From the IMG/VR virus record IMGVR_UViG_2582581022_000020, positions 1-11,649 of that record: a DNA stretch of 11,649 nucleotides. The stretch is one strand, 5' to 3'. Source of the DNA: a virus (lineage: Duplodnaviria > Heunggongvirae > Uroviricota > Caudoviricetes). The notes under the pieces are model-generated. The model saw nothing but the letters and a program-made list of their open reading frames with translations, ran no database searches and was not told where the DNA came from. This document shows positions 1 to 7,018 of the stretch, in pieces. Numbering within the stretch: the first letter of the stretch is position 1; each line of letters opens with the position of its first letter. Made by a program: the position numbers and the translations under genes.

Positions 1-420
1 ATGACGGATTATCAGCCATACAGGAAAGGAACTGTGCTTGCCCCAACTGGACCATGCAATCATCTTCATGTGATTTGTAATGATCCTGTTTATTACCCCG
101 TTAACGATTGTTATTGTGTTTTAGTTGTTAATATTTCTAGTATCAAGGATGGTGTCCCCCACGATCCGTCTTGCGTCTTGAATTCTGGTGATCATCGCTT
201 TATCAAGCATCCAAGTTATGTTGTTTACGCTGAAGCTATAATTTGGCGAGTGGATAACATGGTTAGAAAGCTGCGATCGGGTGAGATTTCTGTTCATGAT
301 GATATGCCAGAAGCTACATTCAATAGAATTCTGGACGGTTTTGATATCTCTGATGAAGTTACGCCAAAGAACCTTAAATTTAAAAATAAATATTGCGTAT
401 CATCTATTGATGATGAGTAA
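1..420 (+). CDS. Hypothetical 139-aa protein, first gene of a plus-strand cassette opposite to the early-left operon; weak Kid/PemK/MazF-like pattern
   Basis: Complete ATG-to-TAA ORF, protein-like composition. Segment-wise resemblance to the Kid/PemK toxin fold, judged by eye only (RKGTVLAPTGP, CVLVVNISS, YVVYAEAIIWRVDNM, MPEATFNRILDGF). Confidence 0.45.
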   Translation: MTDYQPYRKGTVLAPTGPCNHLHVICNDPVYYPVNDCYCVLVVNISSIKDGVPHDPSCVLNSGDHRFIKHPSYVVYAEAIIWRVDNMVRKLRSGEISVHDDMPEATFNRILDGFDISDEVTPKNLKFKNKYCVSSIDDE

Positions 421-459
421 ACAACAGGAATTGTTTCGGTATAACTTCTGGAGTTTTCT

Positions 460-633
460 ATGGAAGATCAAAAAGCAACCAAGCCACAGGTTAAGTTCGA
501 CACAATGAAAGCATTCGTAGGTATGGGTGCTGCTGTTGAAGTTCTGATGAAGGCTGCTCCTAATGCGTTCACTCACGCTACTGTCTCTGGTAAAGAGCAG
601 CAGGGTAAGCTTCGTCGTCTCAAAGCAGCATGA
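460..633 (+). CDS. Small hypothetical protein, 57 aa (MEDQKATKPQVKFDT...KLRRLKAA), below the ORF-track length cutoff
   Basis: ATG at 460 preceded by GGAG (450-453) with a 6-nt spacer; TGA at 631-633; strong terminator 20 nt downstream. Confidence 0.4.
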   Translation: MEDQKATKPQVKFDTMKAFVGMGAAVEVLMKAAPNAFTHATVSGKEQQGKLRRLKAA

Positions 634-652
634 TCATAGCTGGTGCTTTTTG

Positions 653-678
653 AAAACCCGCCTTCAGGCGGGTTTTTT
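653..678. terminator. Bidirectional rho-independent terminator between convergent genes
   Basis: AAAACCCGCC-TTCA-GGCGGGTTTT stem-loop with a T-run on the plus strand and an A-run upstream (T-run on minus); lies between the plus-strand stop at 633 and the minus-strand stop at 681. Confidence 0.75.
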
Positions 679-680
679 CT

Positions 681-962
681 TTAGTGATTTTCTTTGCCCT
701 TCTGTTTGACTGTTCTGACCTGTTCCCACTCGATACGTCCTTCTTCTCGCCTTTTGTCTATGTATTCCGCAAGATCCTGAATATTGATGCAACGTTTTGC
801 TTTTTGTGATGTGCCGATGCGATATGTTGGAACGGGCAACTTACAAGCGTTTGCTTTTGCTTCTGCCGTGGCTGGACTCATACCAAAGTACTTTTGGCTA
901 ACTGCTGAGAGTTCAATGTTTGGGGTATTGAATTCAGCCATCAGTAAAAACAAGGTGTTCAT
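681..962 (-). CDS. PrtN/excisionase-family small DNA-binding protein; last gene of the leftward early operon
   Basis: N-terminus MNTLFLLMAEF and C-terminal DLAEYIDKRREEG fit the recalled PrtN-family pattern. ATG at 962 has a GGAGA RBS with ~5-6 nt spacing; the ORF track's 989 start is GTG without an RBS. Confidence 0.6.
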   Translation of the reverse strand: MNTLFLLMAEFNTPNIELSAVSQKYFGMSPATAEAKANACKLPVPTYRIGTSQKAKRCINIQDLAEYIDKRREEGRIEWEQVRTVKQKGKENH

Positions 963-998
963 AATTTTCTCCATCAAAACCGGCTGCACCCGGGAAAA

Positions 999-1571
999 TC
1001 ATAATTCTGTGCTGGTGGCAGGAATTAATTTCTGCCAGATAGCGGAAACATATTTTGCCTGATGACGGGCATCAGCCAGGGCGTTGTGCCGTTCGCCATC
1101 GAAAGGCATGTCCATTTTGGGGTCGAATCCGATGGAACGCCCAAGCGTAACGATCGTGCGTACATCGTGGTCATTCCAGTATGCCCACGGGCAGATTTGT
1201 CCTGCTCGCTCATAAGCTCCACGTAAAATTACGTTGTCGAAGGTGGCTCCGTTACCCCAGACTTTTAAATATTTCGTATTGTCTGCGTGCCGGTTAATGA
1301 AATGATTTAGTTCTGAGAGAGCATCGCTGATCGACAAAGTATCATCAATACAGATTGCAGCTCGTGCTTCAGGGCTTTGTTTCAACCACCACAGGATGGT
1401 ATCGCCGTCAGGTGTAGCTCCTTGCTCCATAGCACTTTCCAGGCTAACAACCGTATAGAATTCTTGTCCGATGTCTCCGGTTTCTGGAGTGAAGAACACC
1501 GCGCCAATGGAAACGATCGGTGCATCCTTATTTTTCCCCATCGTCTCAAGGTCGATCATTAAGTTATTCAT
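999..1571 (-). CDS. DnaQ-like DEDDh 3'-5' exonuclease (RNase H-like fold)
   Basis: Exo I motif MIDLETMG, Exo III motif with catalytic His (RHNALADARHQAKY); ATG shares a base with the upstream gene's TAA (TAATG coupling). Confidence 0.8.
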   Translation of the reverse strand: MNNLMIDLETMGKNKDAPIVSIGAVFFTPETGDIGQEFYTVVSLESAMEQGATPDGDTILWWLKQSPEARAAICIDDTLSISDALSELNHFINRHADNTKYLKVWGNGATFDNVILRGAYERAGQICPWAYWNDHDVRTIVTLGRSIGFDPKMDMPFDGERHNALADARHQAKYVSAIWQKLIPATSTEL

Positions 1572-1882
1572 TACTTCACCTCCTGCGTTTCTTTGCTGCT
1601 GTGAATTCGCCAGTTACCGACGCCTTCCCATTCAAACTGGCGGTTACTAATTCGCGTCCAGCCCCTGCCGAAAAGCAAATCCAGATACCAGTATTTTAAA
1701 GTTCTGATAATTGCTCTTACAGTTGGTTTGCATCCAGAAGTCTTTGATGCGCAAATAAAGCACCGAGTTATGCTCATGGCTTCTACAAAAGGCCAGATAA
1801 ACCAAACCCAGATGCAAAGAGCCACGAACAACATGAGCGCGATGTTAGCCACTAAGCCAGACCAGTACAGATAATTGCTCAT
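1571..1882 (-). CDS. Hypothetical small membrane protein (103 aa)
   Basis: Hydrophobic Trp-rich N-terminal segment (LVANIALMLFVALCIWVWFIWPFV) consistent with a transmembrane helix; ATGA overlap with the upstream gene. Confidence 0.55.
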   Translation of the reverse strand: MSNYLYWSGLVANIALMLFVALCIWVWFIWPFVEAMSITRCFICASKTSGCKPTVRAIIRTLKYWYLDLLFGRGWTRISNRQFEWEGVGNWRIHSSKETQEVK

Positions 1883-2262
1883 TGGTTGCCTCCACCTTGG
1901 CTCTGAAGCATGGCAGCGCGGCAGGCGTTCCAGCCATCAACATACCCAGCCATGATATATCGATTAAAACCCACATCTTTCTGTGCGCGTGCCAGATTCA
2001 TTTCCTCCGGCACGTGTACTGGCTGAGCTATATATAGCGGCTGAACATACCAACCCTTTGATAACCAACTGTCAGCAACGTTTTTACTCCGTGTTATTGC
2101 CGGAATACCTAAGCCATTGTCTGAATGCAGCCATGCCACCGGTTCTGCTTCCAGCGATGCCAGCGTAATCCGTGCAAGTTCCATTTGTTCACCACGGGTA
2201 AGCCCGTTTTCAAGCGGATTTTTAATGAATAATTCGATACGTTCTTTGGTAATAGAATTCAT
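1879..2262 (-). CDS. Hypothetical phage protein (127 aa)
   Basis: ORF with protein-like composition, translationally coupled on both sides (TAG..ATG upstream, ATGA downstream). Confidence 0.55.
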   Translation of the reverse strand: MNSITKERIELFIKNPLENGLTRGEQMELARITLASLEAEPVAWLHSDNGLGIPAITRSKNVADSWLSKGWYVQPLYIAQPVHVPEEMNLARAQKDVGFNRYIMAGYVDGWNACRAAMLQSQGGGNQ

Positions 2263-2263
2263 G

Positions 2264-2455
2264 CTATTTCACCTTAATCTCAACATTTCGCAGTTTTAGC
2301 TCCACTGGCAGGTCTGACTTTCCGGTTAAAGCTAATGCGAGATTTTCTGGAGTAATGAGAGCTGTTATTGTTTTCCCCATTGCCAGACGAATAATTATTC
2401 GTATTTCGCGATCGTCACATGCTCCCGGTCGAACAATTGATATTTGTCCGTCCAT
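2264..2455 (-). CDS. Hypothetical small protein (63 aa)
   Basis: ATG start 2 nt after the upstream gene's stop; fills the gap in a tightly packed operon. Confidence 0.45.
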   Translation of the reverse strand: MDGQISIVRPGACDDREIRIIIRLAMGKTITALITPENLALALTGKSDLPVELKLRNVEIKVK

Positions 2456-2456
2456 A

Positions 2457-3056
2457 TCACTCTCCTTTGATGCGAATGCCAGCGTCAGACATCATATGCA
2501 GATACTCACCTGCATCCTGAACCCATTGACCTCCAACCCCGTAATAGCGATGCGTAATGATGTCGATAGTTACTAACGGGTCTTGTTCGATTAACTGCCG
2601 CAGAAACTCTTCCAGGTCACCAGTGCAGTGCTTGATGACAGGAGTCTTCCCAGGATGGCGAACAACAAGAAACTGGTTTCCGTCTTCACGGACTTCGTTG
2701 CTTTCCAGTTTAGCAATACGCTTACTCCCATCCGAGATAACACCTTCGTAATACTCACGCTGCTCGTTGAGTTTTGATTTTGCCGACTCCAGTTGTTTTG
2801 TTAGTTCCGCAATACGGCAAACATCGTTGATACGCGTTTCCTCTAATGCGTTGATCTCATCCAACAATGCCAGCGCGATATCTGGCGTAGGTTTTGTCTG
2901 TAACTCTTCGATACGTTCAGCCAGCGCCGCGCACTTGGCCTCAGCTTCAGCAAATTTACGCACCAGGTACTCAGCGTTTGTTTCGTTCACTTTCAGATCT
3001 CGCGGTACACATTTCCCGCGAAGAAACCCTTCCATTTCGAAAACATTCATGCGCAT
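2457..3056 (-). CDS. Ea22-like coiled-coil early protein
   Basis: Central Glu/Leu/Ala-rich coiled-coil and C-terminal ITHRYYGVGGQWVQDAGEYLHMMSDAGIRIKG tail resemble lambdoid ead/Ea22-like proteins. Alternative ATG at 3050 overlaps the upstream TGA (ATGA). Confidence 0.6.
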   Translation of the reverse strand: MRMNVFEMEGFLRGKCVPRDLKVNETNAEYLVRKFAEAEAKCAALAERIEELQTKPTPDIALALLDEINALEETRINDVCRIAELTKQLESAKSKLNEQREYYEGVISDGSKRIAKLESNEVREDGNQFLVVRHPGKTPVIKHCTGDLEEFLRQLIEQDPLVTIDIITHRYYGVGGQWVQDAGEYLHMMSDAGIRIKGE

Positions 3057-3583
3057 TTGCGTAACCCCGATAACTCGTTAAAACGTTCCATAAACATCCC
3101 GTAGGCATGGCCTGGTGACAGTGGAATCACGTTGAACATCTCTGTTGCCGGGATACCTTCCAGTACAGGCCAGAAAGAACCATCATCAAGCCCGAGATCA
3201 CGGCGTTCGGTTGCCAGCATAATGAGATCGGCATATTTCACTGGCGTGCTCATAACAGGAGGTAACCCGTATTTCTCACGGATTACGGCGTCTATTTTTT
3301 CTTCCATCCGTTTATAGTCAGGAAGAAGGCGTTTCAGTGGAGCGGGAATATCCTGGCAATACGCTTCTGTTGCATCATGCATTAACGCTTCAAAAGCAAA
3401 TTCCTGCGGCACCAGCTGGCTGCAAAGCACCGCATGCTGGGCGACGCTGTAGAAGTGCGAAAGATGACCGGCAAAGCGACAGATATTTGAAAGGGAAACC
3501 GCGATATCGTTAATATCGATGTCGTCTTTATTTATCCTGTCATAATAAAAATGCTTCCCGGAAAAAGTTTTAATAAATGACAT
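3047..3583 (-). CDS. yfdR: HD-domain phosphohydrolase, YfdR-like 5'-deoxynucleotidase (178 aa)
   Basis: HD motif (His...ALMHDATEAY); ATG at 3583 with GGAG 6 nt upstream. The ORF-track start at 3628 is TTG without an RBS. Length and family match recalled CPS-53 YfdR. Confidence 0.75.
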   Translation of the reverse strand: MSFIKTFSGKHFYYDRINKDDIDINDIAVSLSNICRFAGHLSHFYSVAQHAVLCSQLVPQEFAFEALMHDATEAYCQDIPAPLKRLLPDYKRMEEKIDAVIREKYGLPPVMSTPVKYADLIMLATERRDLGLDDGSFWPVLEGIPATEMFNVIPLSPGHAYGMFMERFNELSGLRKCA

Positions 3584-3676
3584 TTTGTTCTCCACGTATA
3601 TGCGCTGCACCGCGCTGAATTCTGGCAAAAAGAATCCCTCACCATCCGGCGATTATTGAGTAAATTACGTTTCCAT

Positions 3677-3698
3677 AAATGCCCCCGCAGGGGCATTT
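3677..3698. other. Perfect 9-bp stem / 4-nt loop hairpin (AAATGCCCC-CGCA-GGGGCATTT) in the yfdQ-yfdR intergenic region
   Basis: Perfect inverted repeat 13 nt past the yfdQ-like stop; no U-tract on either strand, so not a canonical intrinsic terminator. Confidence 0.5.
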
Positions 3699-3710
3699 GC
3701 AGTAATGAAA

Positions 3711-4535
3711 TCAGGCGGTGAAAGTACCAATAAAGGTTTCTACTTTGCTGTCCTTGAATTTCTCAACAAGCAGATCACGAAATTCGTTAGCCATTTCTTC
3801 CTGCACCGCCTCCAGCTGAATAATGCGCAGAACCAGTACAGGACGATCGCCAGTGATAATACTGAGGCGTAATTTAAACGGACGTTCTTTCAGACCTTCA
3901 AACGGAACGCATTTAAATTCAAATGCCACTGGCATAATGTCTTTGGTCTTCGCTTCGACAGACTCCATCAGGGAGCGTTTGCCGCTGAAGTCATTATCTT
4001 CAAAATCAGAGGTCTGGTTTGCTTCAATCGTGATTTTACGGACAGCCGCAGCCGCTTTTGTTGCCTGAATAGCGTCACCATTAGCATCAAAGCCCACAAG
4101 ATAGTCGGCCCAGTCTTCAATCCATTCTGCTAGTGACTTCTGGGAGTTACGCTCGCCGTTAACAGACAACAGAGCAGAGAACGGTGCTGTCTTTTTCAGT
4201 TTGAGTGTGGCGGTGTTATCTGCGTGACCTGGTTCATCAATAGTACCCAGGTTAAGCACACTGACTGCACGCATATTATCAGCATCGATAAAGCAGCGGG
4301 TGCCTTCATCTGCAAGATCTTTAGAATAACGGGTAAAGTCATCGATGCTGGCAGTGGAAAGCGCACCACGGAAACGGAAGCGATTTAAATTAAATTTTTC
4401 CAGATCATGAATGCGGAAATGCTCAGGCAATGCCACAGCATCGGCACCAATCTTACTGATAATTTCATTAACACCCTGAGCAGAAATAAGGGCATGGATT
4501 TGATTAATTGCGGTTGCGTCTAAGTTCTGAGACAT
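3711..4535 (-). CDS. yfdQ: YfdQ-like DUF2303-family protein (274 aa)
   Basis: ATG with GAGGA RBS; length and position immediately upstream of the YfdR-like gene match the recalled CPS-53 yfdQ-yfdR synteny. Confidence 0.7.
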
Positions 4536-4600
4536 AATAAGTCCTCACTATATAAAGATATTCAGTGATGAGATAAATAATCAGTTAATTAAAAACGATA

Positions 4601-4963
4601 TTAACGACCTGCTGCGCGGAGTTTTCCGTCAGGTTCACCGGCAAGAGTCAGTAACTGTCCCTGGTCTTCCTGCAGAATAGTCAGGCGACCACCGCGATTG
4701 ACATACATCGGCGTTTCGGTGGTGTCTTCTTCGGAAATTTTCCCGCGGTTAGTCGGGCGAACATATGAGAGTTTGTGTTTGATTTTCACACGGTTCTCAT
4801 CAAATGGTTCGATTTCCAGGTTGAGTGAGACCTTACCTTTGGTTTTCGTGTTCATCACACCGGAAGCGACTTCACTGAGAACTGCGCCGATTTTGGTTTC
4901 AAATACGCCGCCGTCCAGCTCCCCGATAAATGCCTGCACATCAGTACTGCGTTCGCTAGCCAT
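4601..4963 (-). CDS. Hypothetical early protein (120 aa, MASERSTDVQAFIGELDGG...); possibly yfdP-like
   Basis: ATG at 4963 preceded by GAGGAG at -13..-8. The ORF track's 226-aa version is an upstream extension through GC-rich non-coding sequence. Confidence 0.6.
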   Translation of the reverse strand: MASERSTDVQAFIGELDGGVFETKIGAVLSEVASGVMNTKTKGKVSLNLEIEPFDENRVKIKHKLSYVRPTNRGKISEEDTTETPMYVNRGGRLTILQEDQGQLLTLAGEPDGKLRAAGR

Positions 4964-5011
4964 TTTGCTGCTCCTCATCATATCGACCCTGCAAGGTCGG
5001 TTAGTTTCTCC

Positions 5012-5290
5012 ACAAAACAGAGAAGAACACCTGCGGTGACTGCCGCCCGGATGGATTGGGTTATGAGCCCGTCGTCCGGTGATGCTCTTCTCTGTTTTGT
5101 AAAAAGGACGGTACCAGCCGGAAGCAAGGGTACAAACTGGTACCTCCAGGACTACACACAGCATAAAGTTGTGGTGCCGGGTGCCTCCCGGTGCCTGGCG
5201 AAGGTTGCACACCAGACGGGTGGGTATCCACAGAAGGTCGACTGTCAGCCTCAACCTTAACCCGCGTGCGCTGAGCCGCATTCACCACAA
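5012..5290. other. GC-rich, highly structured non-coding element; candidate ncRNA or cis-regulatory RNA, strand undetermined
   Basis: No credible ORF. Perfect 15-bp inverted repeat ACAAAACAGAGAAGA (5012-5026) / TCTTCTCTGTTTTGT (5086-5100) enclosing 59 bp with nested hairpins; 8-bp GGTACCAG / CTGGTACC stem (5110-5117 / 5137-5144); three direct GGTGCC(T) repeats (5173-5196); CCGGG-N5-CCCGG hairpin. Confidence 0.35.
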
Positions 5291-5400
5291 CGCTAAGGAT
5301 TCTCTTTGGTTGAAAATACTTAGCTGTTATGTGCCTGTCTTTTCACCACTTCAGGCTCGGTGGTATCCTTTTAAGCCCGTATACATAAAAGGAAAATCAA

Positions 5401-5646
5401 ATGACTTTTGATGAAAAAGAACTTGATAATGCAATTAATAAAATCATCGTAACGTCGCTCTTTTCCTGTCTCAGCGACACTCAGCAGAAACAGTTCTACG
5501 AATCGGCTTTCAACATGATCGAGCGTTGTTGTTTCTGCGATGCCGATGAGTTACCTGAAAAAATCAGGAAACAGTTGGCTGATGCTCTTCGAGTGCGACT
5601 TTCTGACCAATTTTCTGAAATGTGCTCTCGGAATTTGGACAAATAG
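5401..5646 (+). CDS. Hypothetical 81-aa protein, rightward gene between the leftward early operon and cI
   Basis: ATG at 5401 with AAGGA RBS and 7-nt spacer; helical, charged composition. Confidence 0.5.
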   Translation: MTFDEKELDNAINKIIVTSLFSCLSDTQQKQFYESAFNMIERCCFCDADELPEKIRKQLADALRVRLSDQFSEMCSRNLDK

Positions 5647-5839
5647 AAAAAGGCCATTTCCATTCAGGGTCTGATGGAAAGACTTCAGCCTGTTCTAAAG
5701 CACGGCGTAAAGAGAATACAACTCCAGCCATAATCTGATGTTTCCCATTGGCCCAGCTATCGCCGCTCTGATCTACAGGGGCGGCTATGTCGTATGACCA
5801 AACGACTTCACAGTTATTGTTTAAAATCTGGACTTTCAT
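5564..5839 (-). CDS. Questionable 91-aa ORF, first ORF downstream of the pL-like promoter
   Basis: ATG with GGAGG but a 12-nt spacer. The 3' 83 nt overlap the convergent plus-strand gene, and a weak hairpin plus U-run (5641-5680) lies inside it. Not Arg-rich like N. Confidence 0.3.
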   Translation of the reverse strand: MKVQILNNNCEVVWSYDIAAPVDQSGDSWANGKHQIMAGVVFSLRRALEQAEVFPSDPEWKWPFSICPNSESTFQKIGQKVALEEHQPTVS

Positions 5840-5955
5840 TTTGATCTTTAACCTCCAGATACGGGCGTTTAATTGCCCCGCCGAACAGCTCTTTTCCGCA
5901 ATAGCTGCAATGTCTTTCGCGAATCAGCCTGCGCATTCACCACAACTCTAAAAAC

Positions 5956-6011
5956 AAATGTAGGATATCCAACATGTAAGTGTCAAGAGTTTATGTTGGT
6001 TATCCTACATA
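5956..6011 (-). promoter_or_regulatory. pL-like leftward promoter with two OL-type operators
   Basis: On the minus strand, -35 TTGACA (plus coords 5981-5986), 18-nt spacer, -10 TACATT (5957-5962). 18-bp operators ATGTAGGATATCCAACAT (5958-5975) and ATGTTGGTTATCCTACAT (5993-6010). Confidence 0.55.
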
Positions 6012-6024
6012 AAAAGATAGGCTC

Positions 6025-6052
6025 ATAAAAAAACCGGGGATACCCGGTTTTG
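6025..6052 (-). terminator. Intrinsic terminator just downstream of cI, with bidirectional potential
   Basis: Minus strand AACCGGG-UAUC-CCCGGUU followed by a 7-U run, about 20 nt past the cI stop. Confidence 0.65.
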
Positions 6053-6071
6053 CGATAGTGAGGAAGATGTG

Positions 6072-6725
6072 TCAAAAATCCATTATTACTTGTTTGACAA
6101 GACCAACTATTCTGCAGTTCTCACCGCATTCAATAGTTTTATAGTTAGGATTTAGTGGGACGAGATACCTGTTCGGCCAGTCCTCAACAAATTTTTTGAG
6201 TGTCGCTTCTTGCCCACCATTGATATGGGCAACAACGATTTTTCCGTTAATACACTCTGTATCAATAATATCTGGCTCTACGATAACGATAGAACCTTCT
6301 GGTATCGATGGTGAGCCGAGGGGATTGGTCATTGAATCACCACGGACCCGTAGTGCAAATGCCATTTCTGATACAAGGGCGGTAGTATAAACCCACTCTT
6401 CAGCATCTTCTTTCCTGACACCAGGCTCCGTCATTGTCCATGAACCCGCCTGAACCCACGAGATGAGGGGGACTTTTTTAACTGCGAATATTTCAGGTTT
6501 TAGATTTATCTTTGGTTCAGGCGAGCCTTTTCCGCTAACAAGCCACAGAGGATCGCATTTAAGTGCGTTGGCTAGGGCTTGAAGGTTGGCTCCATTTGGT
6601 TGGTAGTCGTCCTTTTCCCATCCAGTAACCGTGACACGGTTCACACCAGTCAAATCAGCCAGTGCTTGTTGTGTCAGGTTCAGTTCTTTTCGCCTTTGGC
6701 GAATACGATCACTCATGTTCATCAT
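6072..6725 (-). CDS. cI: Lambda-cI-type prophage repressor (HTH plus LexA-like S24 autopeptidase domain)
   Basis: N-terminal HTH (IRQRRKELNLTQQALADLTGV); Ala-Gly cleavage context VQAGSW; catalytic Ser in GDSMTNPLG and Lys in ATLKKF; the C-terminal domain (GDSMT...PLNPNY...VGLV) is collinear with lambda cI. Confidence 0.9.
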   Translation of the reverse strand: MMNMSDRIRQRRKELNLTQQALADLTGVNRVTVTGWEKDDYQPNGANLQALANALKCDPLWLVSGKGSPEPKINLKPEIFAVKKVPLISWVQAGSWTMTEPGVRKEDAEEWVYTTALVSEMAFALRVRGDSMTNPLGSPSIPEGSIVIVEPDIIDTECINGKIVVAHINGGQEATLKKFVEDWPNRYLVPLNPNYKTIECGENCRIVGLVKQVIMDF

Positions 6726-6815
6726 GTAGGCAATCCTACCACATGCCCATGTAGGATTCTTGACATTGGCGTGTTGGATATCCTACATTTCTGCTTAACG
6801 TAATTCAACGGGAGA
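6724..6815. promoter_or_regulatory. OR-type operator cluster (three sites) with pR and divergent pRM-like arrangement
   Basis: Operators at 6724-6741, 6749-6766 and 6771-6788. pR -35 TTGACA (6760-6765), 18-nt spacer, -10 TACATT (6784-6789), then GGGAGA RBS and cro ATG at 6821. The operator at 6724-6741 overlaps the cI start codon. Confidence 0.6.
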
Positions 6816-6820
6816 CAGAA

Positions 6821-7018
6821 ATGCGGAAATCCGACGTGATTAATTATTTCGGCGGAGTTTGTAAAACCGCCGAAGCCCTAGGTATTAAGCATCCGTCTGT
6901 TTCAGAGTGGCCTGAGATTATTCCTGAAGGCCGAGCGTACCAGTTAGAAAAAATTACTAACGGGAAACTGAAAGTTGACGTGTCTTTATATCAAAAGACT
7001 AACAGTGCTGCGGCATAA
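6821..7018 (+). CDS. cro: Cro-like (YdaS-family) HTH regulator
   Basis: 65-aa protein immediately downstream of pR/OR and divergent from cI; HTH-like segment GGVCKTAEALGIKHPSVSEW. Confidence 0.8.
   Translation: MRKSDVINYFGGVCKTAEALGIKHPSVSEWPEIIPEGRAYQLEKITNGKLKVDVSLYQKTNSAAA

Follow-up and report, generated by a model that had tools for sequence, protein, structure and literature searches.

An overlapping convergent gene pair behind a sieB-type leader core in the early region of an SfV-like lambdoid phage or prophage

The DNA analyzed here, a stretch of 11,649 nucleotides (nt) that corresponds to positions 1 to 11,649 of IMG/VR record IMGVR_UViG_2582581022_000020 and is called the window below, is the early region of an SfV-like lambdoid phage or prophage. 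This work concerns the locus between its repressor gene and its leftward early genes, where two convergent open reading frames (ORFs), a rightward one of 81 codons and a leftward one of 91 codons, are found next to a short conserved core that is located upstream of the exclusion gene sieB in phages P22 and lambda (Table 1). An earlier sequence-only reading of the window had described the 81-amino-acid (81-aa) ORF as a plus-strand ORF with a good ribosome-binding site (RBS) that points against the pL transcript. This description holds, as an AAGGA motif (5389-5393) is situated 7 nt ahead of the ATG codon and a pL-like promoter is directed leftward from the other side of the locus. The convergent ORFs share 83 nt (5564-5646), the overlap that the same reading had given and that is present in the program-made list of ORFs.

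The 81-aa and 91-aa genes

Both ORFs are real, co-inherited genes, and the conservation pattern behind this conclusion is far above chance. The 91-aa partner is present at 155 of the 157 loci that carry a homolog of the 81-aa protein, in prophages of Escherichia, Salmonella, Klebsiella, and Yersinia, and the distance from start to start is 439 nt in all 155 paired loci, without any insertion or deletion. In the diverged homologs, which come from Salmonella, Klebsiella, and Yersinia prophages and from metagenomes, the 91-aa protein shows 45-68% identity and the 81-aa protein 56-63%; both ORFs are intact in each diverged copy and convergent at every such locus. A tblastn search of 50,697 phage records detected the two proteins together in four records and neither of them in any other, and the pair is carried by 404 of 5426 complete E. 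coli genomes (about 7%). The flanks of the pair are unrelated among the loci and include Rac-like RecE regions, P22-like regions, and yfdP-type regions. A peptide-pattern scan of genome contigs found no relatives, and the matches of a loose DNA pattern on genome contigs were mostly due to chance.

The variability of codon positions, calculated as the mean pairwise difference at positions 1/2/3 among five lineages, distinguishes the two frames. It equals 0.21/0.16/0.47 in the plus frame of the segment 5401-5563 and 0.25/0.15/0.41 in the minus frame of the segment 5647-5839. Thus, each half of the locus has the third-position signature of its own frame, as expected if both ORFs are genes. Within the overlap, the segment 5581-5610 varies little at all three codon positions (0.06/0.16/0.18), which suggests that these ~30 nt are constrained in both reading frames, and the adjacent segment 5611-5640 is variable in both. 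Of the five lineages first aligned, four share an identical 17-nt block, GCTCTTCGAGAGCGACT, in the constrained zone, from which the window departs by one change and the Yersinia copy by several. The functional parts of the two genes extend roughly over 5401-5625 (81-aa gene) and 5839-5581 (91-aa gene). The stop codon of the minus-strand ORF wanders among the lineages, yielding products of 91, 93, or 122 aa whose long tails are not conserved as protein. The conserved part of the 91-aa protein comprises approximately residues 1-85, and its N-terminal ~65 residues are well kept, with substitutions of the conservative kind.

Existing annotations usually list just one gene of the pair. The Prokaryotic Genome Annotation Pipeline (PGAP) annotates only the 91-aa ORF (WP_072199399.1), which is orf33 of SfV, and one RAST-annotated phage record calls the 81-aa ORF in its place; annotation pipelines routinely overlook one of two truly overlapping convergent genes. 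The sequence-only reading had called the 91-aa ORF questionable, a doubt that its conservation, its PGAP annotation, its counterpart in SfV, and its own codon signature remove. The terminator-like hairpin reported inside this ORF does exist (TTTCCAT at 5657-5663 with ATGGAAA at 5674-5680, followed by CCUUUUUC on the minus strand), but its role as a terminator was rejected, since the diverged lineages lack the hairpin, which is thus confined to the lineage of the window, and its U-run is merely made of codons for W-P-F. Another hairpin, ATCAAA-TGACT-TTTGAT (5398-5414), straddles the start codon of the 81-aa gene and is followed on the minus strand by UUUCCUUUU. It corresponds to the "putative rho-independent terminator" annotated in SfV and is not obviously conserved in other lineages.

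As the sequence-only reading had supposed, neither protein belongs to a recognized family: no family match was obtained for either of them in Pfam, NCBIfam, PADLOC, or the sequence profiles of PDB. In PHROGs, both fall into groups labeled as having unknown function, namely PHROG 3311 for the 81-aa protein (E = 2.8e-54, positions 1-81 of 81) and PHROG 3195 for the 91-aa protein (E = 1.3e-64, positions 8-98 of 98). Foldseek searches against PDB and BFVD gave no match at E <= 0.001. The 81-aa protein is acidic and soluble, with an isoelectric point (pI) of 4.7, a grand average of hydropathy (GRAVY) of -0.43, a maximum 19-residue hydropathy of 0.80, and no membrane segment. Its AlphaFold2 (AF2) model, of low confidence according to a predicted local distance difference test (pLDDT) score of 67, consists of amphipathic helices at residues 5-22, 26-50, and 53-80. 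Residue Met39 is invariant, and no RBS is found ahead of it in the aligned sequences. The 91-aa protein is likewise acidic and soluble (pI 4.95) and has no hydrophobic segment. Its N terminus, MKVQILNNNCEVVW, contains no arginine-rich RNA-binding motif, and the whole protein has two arginines, in agreement with the earlier remark that it is not arginine-rich like the N protein. Its AF2 model is unreliable (pLDDT 45).

An exhaustive profile search identified distant homologs of the 81-aa protein that are 26-50% identical to the protein of the window. A CCxC motif of the window protein was considered as a metal site and rejected, since the cysteines are not conserved in these homologs. Two of the distant homologs (L337 3001-3219 and L338 2265-2519; 26-40% identity) are encoded by solitary genes of the cargo region that separates the Q antiterminator from the holin, where they are oriented antisense to the late operon. 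An antisense position between Q and the holin is typical of lysogen-expressed accessory genes. At the L338 locus, the homolog is a neighbor of HicAB in the cargo region, and a remnant of the 3' part of the 91-aa gene (AAGGCCATTTCCATCCAGG) follows the homolog.

The sieB-type core and the leader of the 81-aa gene

Homology between the lineages starts at about 5333 and not at the 81-aa ORF, and it begins with a core of 31 nt. According to blastn, the same core is located directly upstream of the annotated sieB gene in P22, lambda, HK620, VT1-Sakai, and their relatives, and it is also present in SfV. In the annotated regions of P22 and lambda, the rightward sieB gene converges on the leftward gene 24 or N, respectively, which is the first gene of the pL transcript. 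In the window, the 81-aa gene follows this sieB-type core, is directed against pL, and converges on a pL-transcribed gene. The sequence-only reading had assigned the locus to the rexAB/sieB position, which proves literally correct for sieB: P22 and lambda carry the core found here ahead of their sieB genes. By these comparisons, the 81-aa gene occupies the sieB slot, and the 91-aa gene is in the N/gp24 position without being N-like.

The likeness to the sieB-esc-sas systems of P22 and lambda extends over the whole arrangement. In each case a rightward gene has the first pL gene, on which it converges, on one side and the ral-side genes on the other, the upstream core is shared (29 of the 31 positions are identical to P22), and a leader hairpin is located directly after the core. 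Similarly to lambda N and P22 gp24, the 91-aa gene is carried on the pL transcript immediately ahead of the convergence with the gene in the sieB slot. The encoded proteins are different. SieB is a membrane protein of 160-193 aa, whereas the ORF of the window encodes an unrelated soluble, acidic, helical protein that has no match to Pfam PF14163 and belongs to PHROG 3311 rather than to PHROG 6399. A weak motif likeness, LFxxL(S/T)xxEQ, was noticed between residues 16-29 of the 81-aa protein (window positions 5416-5487) and SieB residues ~97-132, just past the membrane helices. The alignment that would relate the 81-aa family to this cytoplasmic part of SieB is not significant (hhalign probability 2.9%, E = 0.015, 34 columns), and homology was rejected as too weak to be more than a lead. 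The convergent gene differs from N/gp24 as well, in that the 91-aa protein has no sequence similarity to these proteins and no arginine-rich motif, and no nut site was identified.

In P22, the leader and the start codon of sieB are covered by the antisense RNA sas. Its sequence, printed in a small-RNA study of 2026, corresponds to nt 11,387-11,513 on the minus strand (PMC13397905, Table 2), and the RNA is abundant, lies on the pL strand, and is present in infected cells only (PMC13397905). In the passages of PMC7067206 and PMC12197685 that summarize the work of Ranade & Poteete (1993), sas is described as switching the translation of sieB between SieB and Esc and as needed for the bypass by the phage of its own exclusion. 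Mapped onto the P22 locus of our set (L562 1485-1611), sas has its 5' end 4 nt within sieB and extends to 17 nt beyond the core, and near its 3' end it includes the reverse complement of the stems S2 and S1 described below (...ACCACCGAGCCUGACGUGGUUAAAAGACAGGC...). By analogy, a pL-strand antisense RNA over the leader and the start codon of the 81-aa gene would be expected in the window; no Rfam model matches this predicted sas-like stretch (5316-5405). The sequence-only reading had suggested an RNA-plus-protein module made of the ORFs and the structured element upstream of them. This suggestion is supported in outline, since the core belongs to the sas antisense RNA in P22 (PMC13397905, Table 2; PMC7067206), and the positional and RNA-plus-protein parts of that reading were largely right.

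The core contains two interleaved stems, S1 and S2, both of which are kept through double compensatory changes: GCCTT/AAGGC for S1 and ACCGC/GCGGT for S2 at the L007 locus, and GCCGGG/CCCGGC and ACCACG/CGTGGT, respectively, in Yersinia. Their combination into an H-type pseudoknot was considered and rejected, since the loop needed to cross S1 would be only 1-3 nt long. We read S1 and S2 as mutually exclusive, alternative hairpins.

The RBS of the 81-aa gene is covered by a third, covarying leader hairpin, S3, which is part of the minimum-energy fold in five of six lineages. An automated best-hairpin search among the 59 unique leaders of this class yielded 27 stem-arm pairs, of which ~20 are clear S3 variants, such as TCCTTC/GAAGGA, TCCTTG/CAAGGA, TCTTGGT/ACCAAGA, TGCTGG/CCAGCA, TACTGG/CCAGTA, and TTCTTGG/CCAAGAA. 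In every case the 3' arm of S3 reaches the RBS, either adjoining or overlapping it, and the internal G.U pairs of the hairpin are compatible with the plus strand only. A metagenome scan revealed no further leader variants. The predicted leader structures are supported by covariation, not by stability.

In each of the ten lineages scanned, the site that best resembles a sigma-70 promoter is located at 5342-5369. In the window it reads TTCACC-16-TATCCT with an upstream TG, and across the lineages it consists of TTCACC, TTGCCA, or TTAACC, a spacer of 15-17 nt, and (TG)nTATCCT. The fourth base of TATCCT (5364-5369) covaries with the 3' arm of S3. Judging by this covariation, either the rightward mRNA would start upstream of S3, or two kinds of transcript would exist.

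Table 1. Coordinates of the genes, predicted RNA elements, and other features of the window
Feature	Position	Strand	Remarks
81-aa gene	5401-5646	+	ATG start; cargo in the sieB slot by sequence comparison
91-aa gene	5564-5839	-	ATG start; final pL-side gene ahead of the convergence point
Doubly constrained zone (suggested)	5581-5610		Low variation at all codon positions; one-frame signature on the flanks
Conserved core GCCTGTCTTTTCACCACTTCAGGCTCGGTGG	5333-5363		29/31 identical to P22 (L562 1502-1532)
Stem S1	5333-5337 with 5352-5356		Interleaved with S2
Stem S2	5345-5349 with 5360-5364		Interleaved with S1
Leader hairpin S3	5366-5393	+	TCCTTTTA (5366-5373) pairs with TAAAAGGA (5386-5393); covers AAGGA 5389-5393
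Predicted sas-like antisense RNA region	5316-5405	-	Coordinates transferred from P22 sas by homology
pL-like promoter, TTGACA-18-TACATT	5957-5986	-	Predicted promoter of the 91-aa gene and of the antisense transcript
STnc100/PasD-like small RNA candidate	5098-5313	-	Rfam RF02076; neighbor, outside the cassette
LexA-family cI-type repressor gene	6072-6725	-
cro	6821-7018	+
YmfL-like gene	7046-7630	+
yfdP, yfdQ, yfdR	Left of the locus	-

Other cargoes of the slot and neighboring features

The core precedes many genes other than sieB and the 81-aa gene. A scan of viral contigs for the core yielded at least 120 stretches, and the first ORFs after at least 307 core copies with at least 1 kb of downstream sequence were grouped into cargo families by single-linkage blastp. 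At least 27 unrelated cargo families were found behind the core (at loci L336, L459, L460-L561, L562, and L563, among others). They include SieB of the P22 type (Pfam SieB, E = 2.9e-25) and of the lambda type (PHROG 6399), YmfI, a BssS-family protein, zinc-ribbon proteins, a weakly GhoS-like protein, and many families labeled as having unknown function. The leaders after the core form two classes, with either one hairpin that covers the RBS or two hairpins with CA-rich loops (e.g., CCCCUACAG or CCCAACAAC). The window has the single hairpin, whereas the sieB class has two hairpins with CCCCUACAG loops. SfIV is without both ORFs and keeps the core, with divergence right after GGTGG. A chimeric protein, P0049, combines the first ~33 residues of the 81-aa protein with the C-terminal part of another cargo (a 104-aa ORF, L534), which is evidence for recombination within the slot.

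The genes that face the other cargoes from the pL side vary and comprise N/gp24, YmfJ-like genes, ClpX-zinc-finger-like genes, and an MKFxxLP family. Small proteins that begin with the pattern M(K/E/N)F(x)(x)LP..V(Q/R)..AA form a recurrent family, and the gene that converges on the cargo from the pL side frequently encodes one of them (L226, L359, L486, L490, L505, and L533; L007 4572-4772).

A comparable architecture is present in the e14 element of E. coli K-12. The ymfI gene has an identical left flank and an identical core directly upstream, and an S3-like hairpin of its own (TGCTGG/CCAGCA), and the rightward ymfI and the leftward ymfJ are convergent, overlap by 63 nt, and adjoin the gene of the LexA-family repressor ymfK (L336 5498-6085). 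However, YmfI has no similarity to the 81-aa protein, nor has YmfJ to the 91-aa protein; homology of the two pairs was rejected, and they are analogues in architecture only. The ymfI-ymfJ pair is listed as an excludon on the basis of RNA-seq (PMC12288877), and ymfJ is induced late in the SOS response, with the YmfJ protein detected (PMC11002266). As in excludons, another of which is sieB-ydaF of the Rac prophage, the locus of the window comprises two convergent genes, whose transcripts would be expected to overlap, and mutual exclusion through transcriptional interference and cleavage of the RNA duplex would be predicted. It differs from excludons in the 83-nt overlap of the coding sequences, ~30 nt of which appear to be under two-frame constraint, and in the predicted transcription of one partner from a repressor-controlled phage promoter. 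No intrinsic terminator was found on the plus strand after the stop codon of the 81-aa gene.

The ~1.2-kb stretch around the locus is 98% identical to prophages of many E. coli genomes. The same 98% identity links it to phages vB_EcoM-720R4 and SKA5, as well as to SfV over 78% of its length. A pR-like site (6760-6789, plus strand) has both hexamers identical to those of the pL-like promoter, and the left operator is probably represented by an inverted repeat of 17 nt at about 5961-6010, TGTAGGATATCCAACAT...ATGTTGGTTATCCTACA. The repressor gene is followed by a bidirectional terminator (6027-6051), CCGGGG-ATA-CCCGG with A and T runs on its flanks, which would also halt rightward read-through out of the 81-aa gene. 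Between pL and the 91-aa gene, there is a 40-aa ORF (5814-5936, minus strand) that overlaps the start of the 91-aa gene by 26 nt and contains the sequence CSYCGKE. It may be a truncated remnant, since the first pL gene at other loci can be ClpX-zinc-finger-like (e.g., MSVNSIYKCSFCG...AICSDCAVQC). This ORF sits in a segment that differs between immunity types, and the homology to SfV stops at ~5841.

At the gathering threshold, Rfam gave no matches within the window. Below it, model RF02076 (STnc100) matched the segment 5098-5313 over its full length (model positions 1-206) with 35.6 bits, compared with a gathering score of 47, and E = 8e-6. STnc100, a family of prophage small RNAs, has recently been linked to PasD small RNAs (bioRxiv 10.64898/2026.05.13.724894). 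In PGAP this segment is a frameshifted pseudogene, and the equivalent stretch of e14 is overlapped by ymfH. The 5' end of the candidate abuts the predicted 3' end of the sas-like RNA, and thus both RNAs could be cut from the pL transcript.

Proposed regulation and alternative explanations

We favor, with modest confidence, the interpretation of the locus as a variant of the lambdoid sieB/sas system that has exchanged its two protein genes for others and whose 81-aa gene is a lysogen-expressed accessory or exclusion factor silenced by antisense RNA from pL. In a lysogen, the mRNA of the 81-aa gene would be produced rightward from the sieB-type promoter and leader, and its translation would be low and gated by S3. 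Once pL becomes active, either in an induced lysogen or in a superinfecting sibling phage, the 91-aa protein would be the first product encoded by the leftward transcript, which would then run antisense to the 81-aa gene and its leader. A sas-like RNA of ~75-90 nt (from 5405 to 5316-5333) would pair with the leader, the RBS, and the start codon, shutting off the 81-aa gene, and convergent transcription would add interference. The 91-aa product would be an early lytic protein that may also neutralize the 81-aa protein. The ymfI/ymfJ pair of K-12 would fit this mechanism, given its listing as an excludon and the late SOS induction of ymfJ. Judging from sieB alone, the phage would need the slot to be silent during lytic growth, which would imply an exclusion-like or otherwise self-harmful cargo. 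By this analogy, the most likely role of the 81-aa protein is that of a prophage accessory factor whose activity would harm lytic growth of its own phage, for example in exclusion, in abortive infection, or as a host modulator. Its gene is a new, so far uncharacterized cargo of a prophage slot already known for antisense control.

Several observations weigh against this interpretation. Neither the leader nor the sas-like RNA has an exceptional fold energy (z from -0.2 to -1.8), and transcription from the sigma-70-like site would begin downstream of the 5' arm of S3, in conflict with the presence of this hairpin in the mRNA. A soluble, acidic product contrasts with SieB, which is a membrane protein, and the 81-aa ORF contains no apparent Esc-like internal start preceded by an RBS. 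A role in exclusion has been demonstrated for one among the at least 27 cargo families, and thus the term "exclusion" is an extrapolation. Finally, physical overlap by itself could account for the close linkage of the two genes, without any shared function.

The strict coupling of the two genes suggests a functional pair, perhaps an effector with its antidote. The 81-aa protein would then be an exclusion factor or a toxic effector of the lysogen, and the 91-aa protein, synthesized first from pL, would bind and neutralize it, in a role like that of Esc toward SieB, and would let the lytic cycle of the phage itself escape. Such a pair would agree with the co-occurrence of the genes at nearly all loci, in the same four phage records, and in five diverged lineages with unrelated flanks, as well as with the fixed geometry and the zone seemingly constrained in both frames; the other cargoes of the slot, by contrast, face varied genes. 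However, overlap alone keeps recombination from separating the genes, distant homologs of the 81-aa protein occur without the partner (L337) or with its remnant only (L338), and the model of the 91-aa protein has a low pLDDT of 45; we regard the effector-antidote explanation as possible but doubtful. A type-I-like toxin-antitoxin system, in which the RBS hairpin and a cis-antisense RNA keep the mRNA of an 81-aa toxin untranslated, seems quite improbable to us. The covariation of the hairpin and the antisense RNA known to cover the leader and start codon of the homologous P22 element are consistent with it, but the 81-aa protein is acidic and hydrophilic and lacks the membrane segment, unlike most type I toxins, it has no match in PADLOC or Pfam, and the antisense RNA of P22, which is present in infected cells only, is not a constitutive antitoxin.

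The pair could also belong to the common early or regulatory genes of phages and, for example, modulate host takeover or the choice between lysis and lysogeny without any function in exclusion or defense, with the core acting mainly as a promoter or terminator or as a recombination linker where modules meet. Most of the scanned cargo families are indeed without known function, the BssS-like and weakly GhoS-like ones suggest host modulation, and the core is nearly invariant even in its loops, marks mosaic breakpoints, and is overlapped by the best promoter-like match. Nevertheless, more than a promoter or a linker is indicated by the compensatory substitutions, which support RNA structure in S1 and S2 and above all in S3, and the characterized member of the slot, sieB, is an exclusion gene with documented antisense control; we consider this explanation unlikely. 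It is extremely improbable that a single ORF is translated and that the other is an open antisense shadow of the real gene. This would account for the habit of gene callers to annotate one of the two and for the three lineages in which the minus-strand ORF extends to 122 aa through the antisense of the 81-aa gene, but it is largely refuted by the third-position signature that each half has in its own frame. Moreover, the 81-aa family has solo homologs elsewhere, and the 91-aa protein is conserved over its N-terminal ~65 residues, whereas the 122-aa tails are not conserved as protein.

The sieB/sas system has so far been treated as a peculiarity of P22 and lambda, and to our knowledge sas is among the few documented antisense RNAs that enable a phage to escape its own exclusion. 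The use of the sas/sieB core as a portable front end for many unrelated cargoes may itself be new, as judged by a partial comparison with the literature. In a wider and rather speculative reading, the core could be a general, portable control module that marks an "anti-pL cargo slot" in enterobacterial lambdoid prophages, into which dozens of unrelated small genes would have been inserted. These cargoes would be lysogen-expressed, silenced by antisense RNA from pL, and mostly undiscovered exclusion or abortive-infection effectors provided with a bypass, the pair described here being a new system of an effector and its antidote. Since the core is nearly invariant, the sas RNA of a superinfecting relative could then silence the cargo of a resident prophage in trans. 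If the regulatory logic carries over, the core would be a cheap tag for lysogen-expressed prophage cargo, including candidates for exclusion, defense, and host modulation, and for the RNA that controls such cargo. It would also provide a testable regulatory hypothesis for ymfI/ymfJ of E. coli K-12 and for orf33 of SfV.

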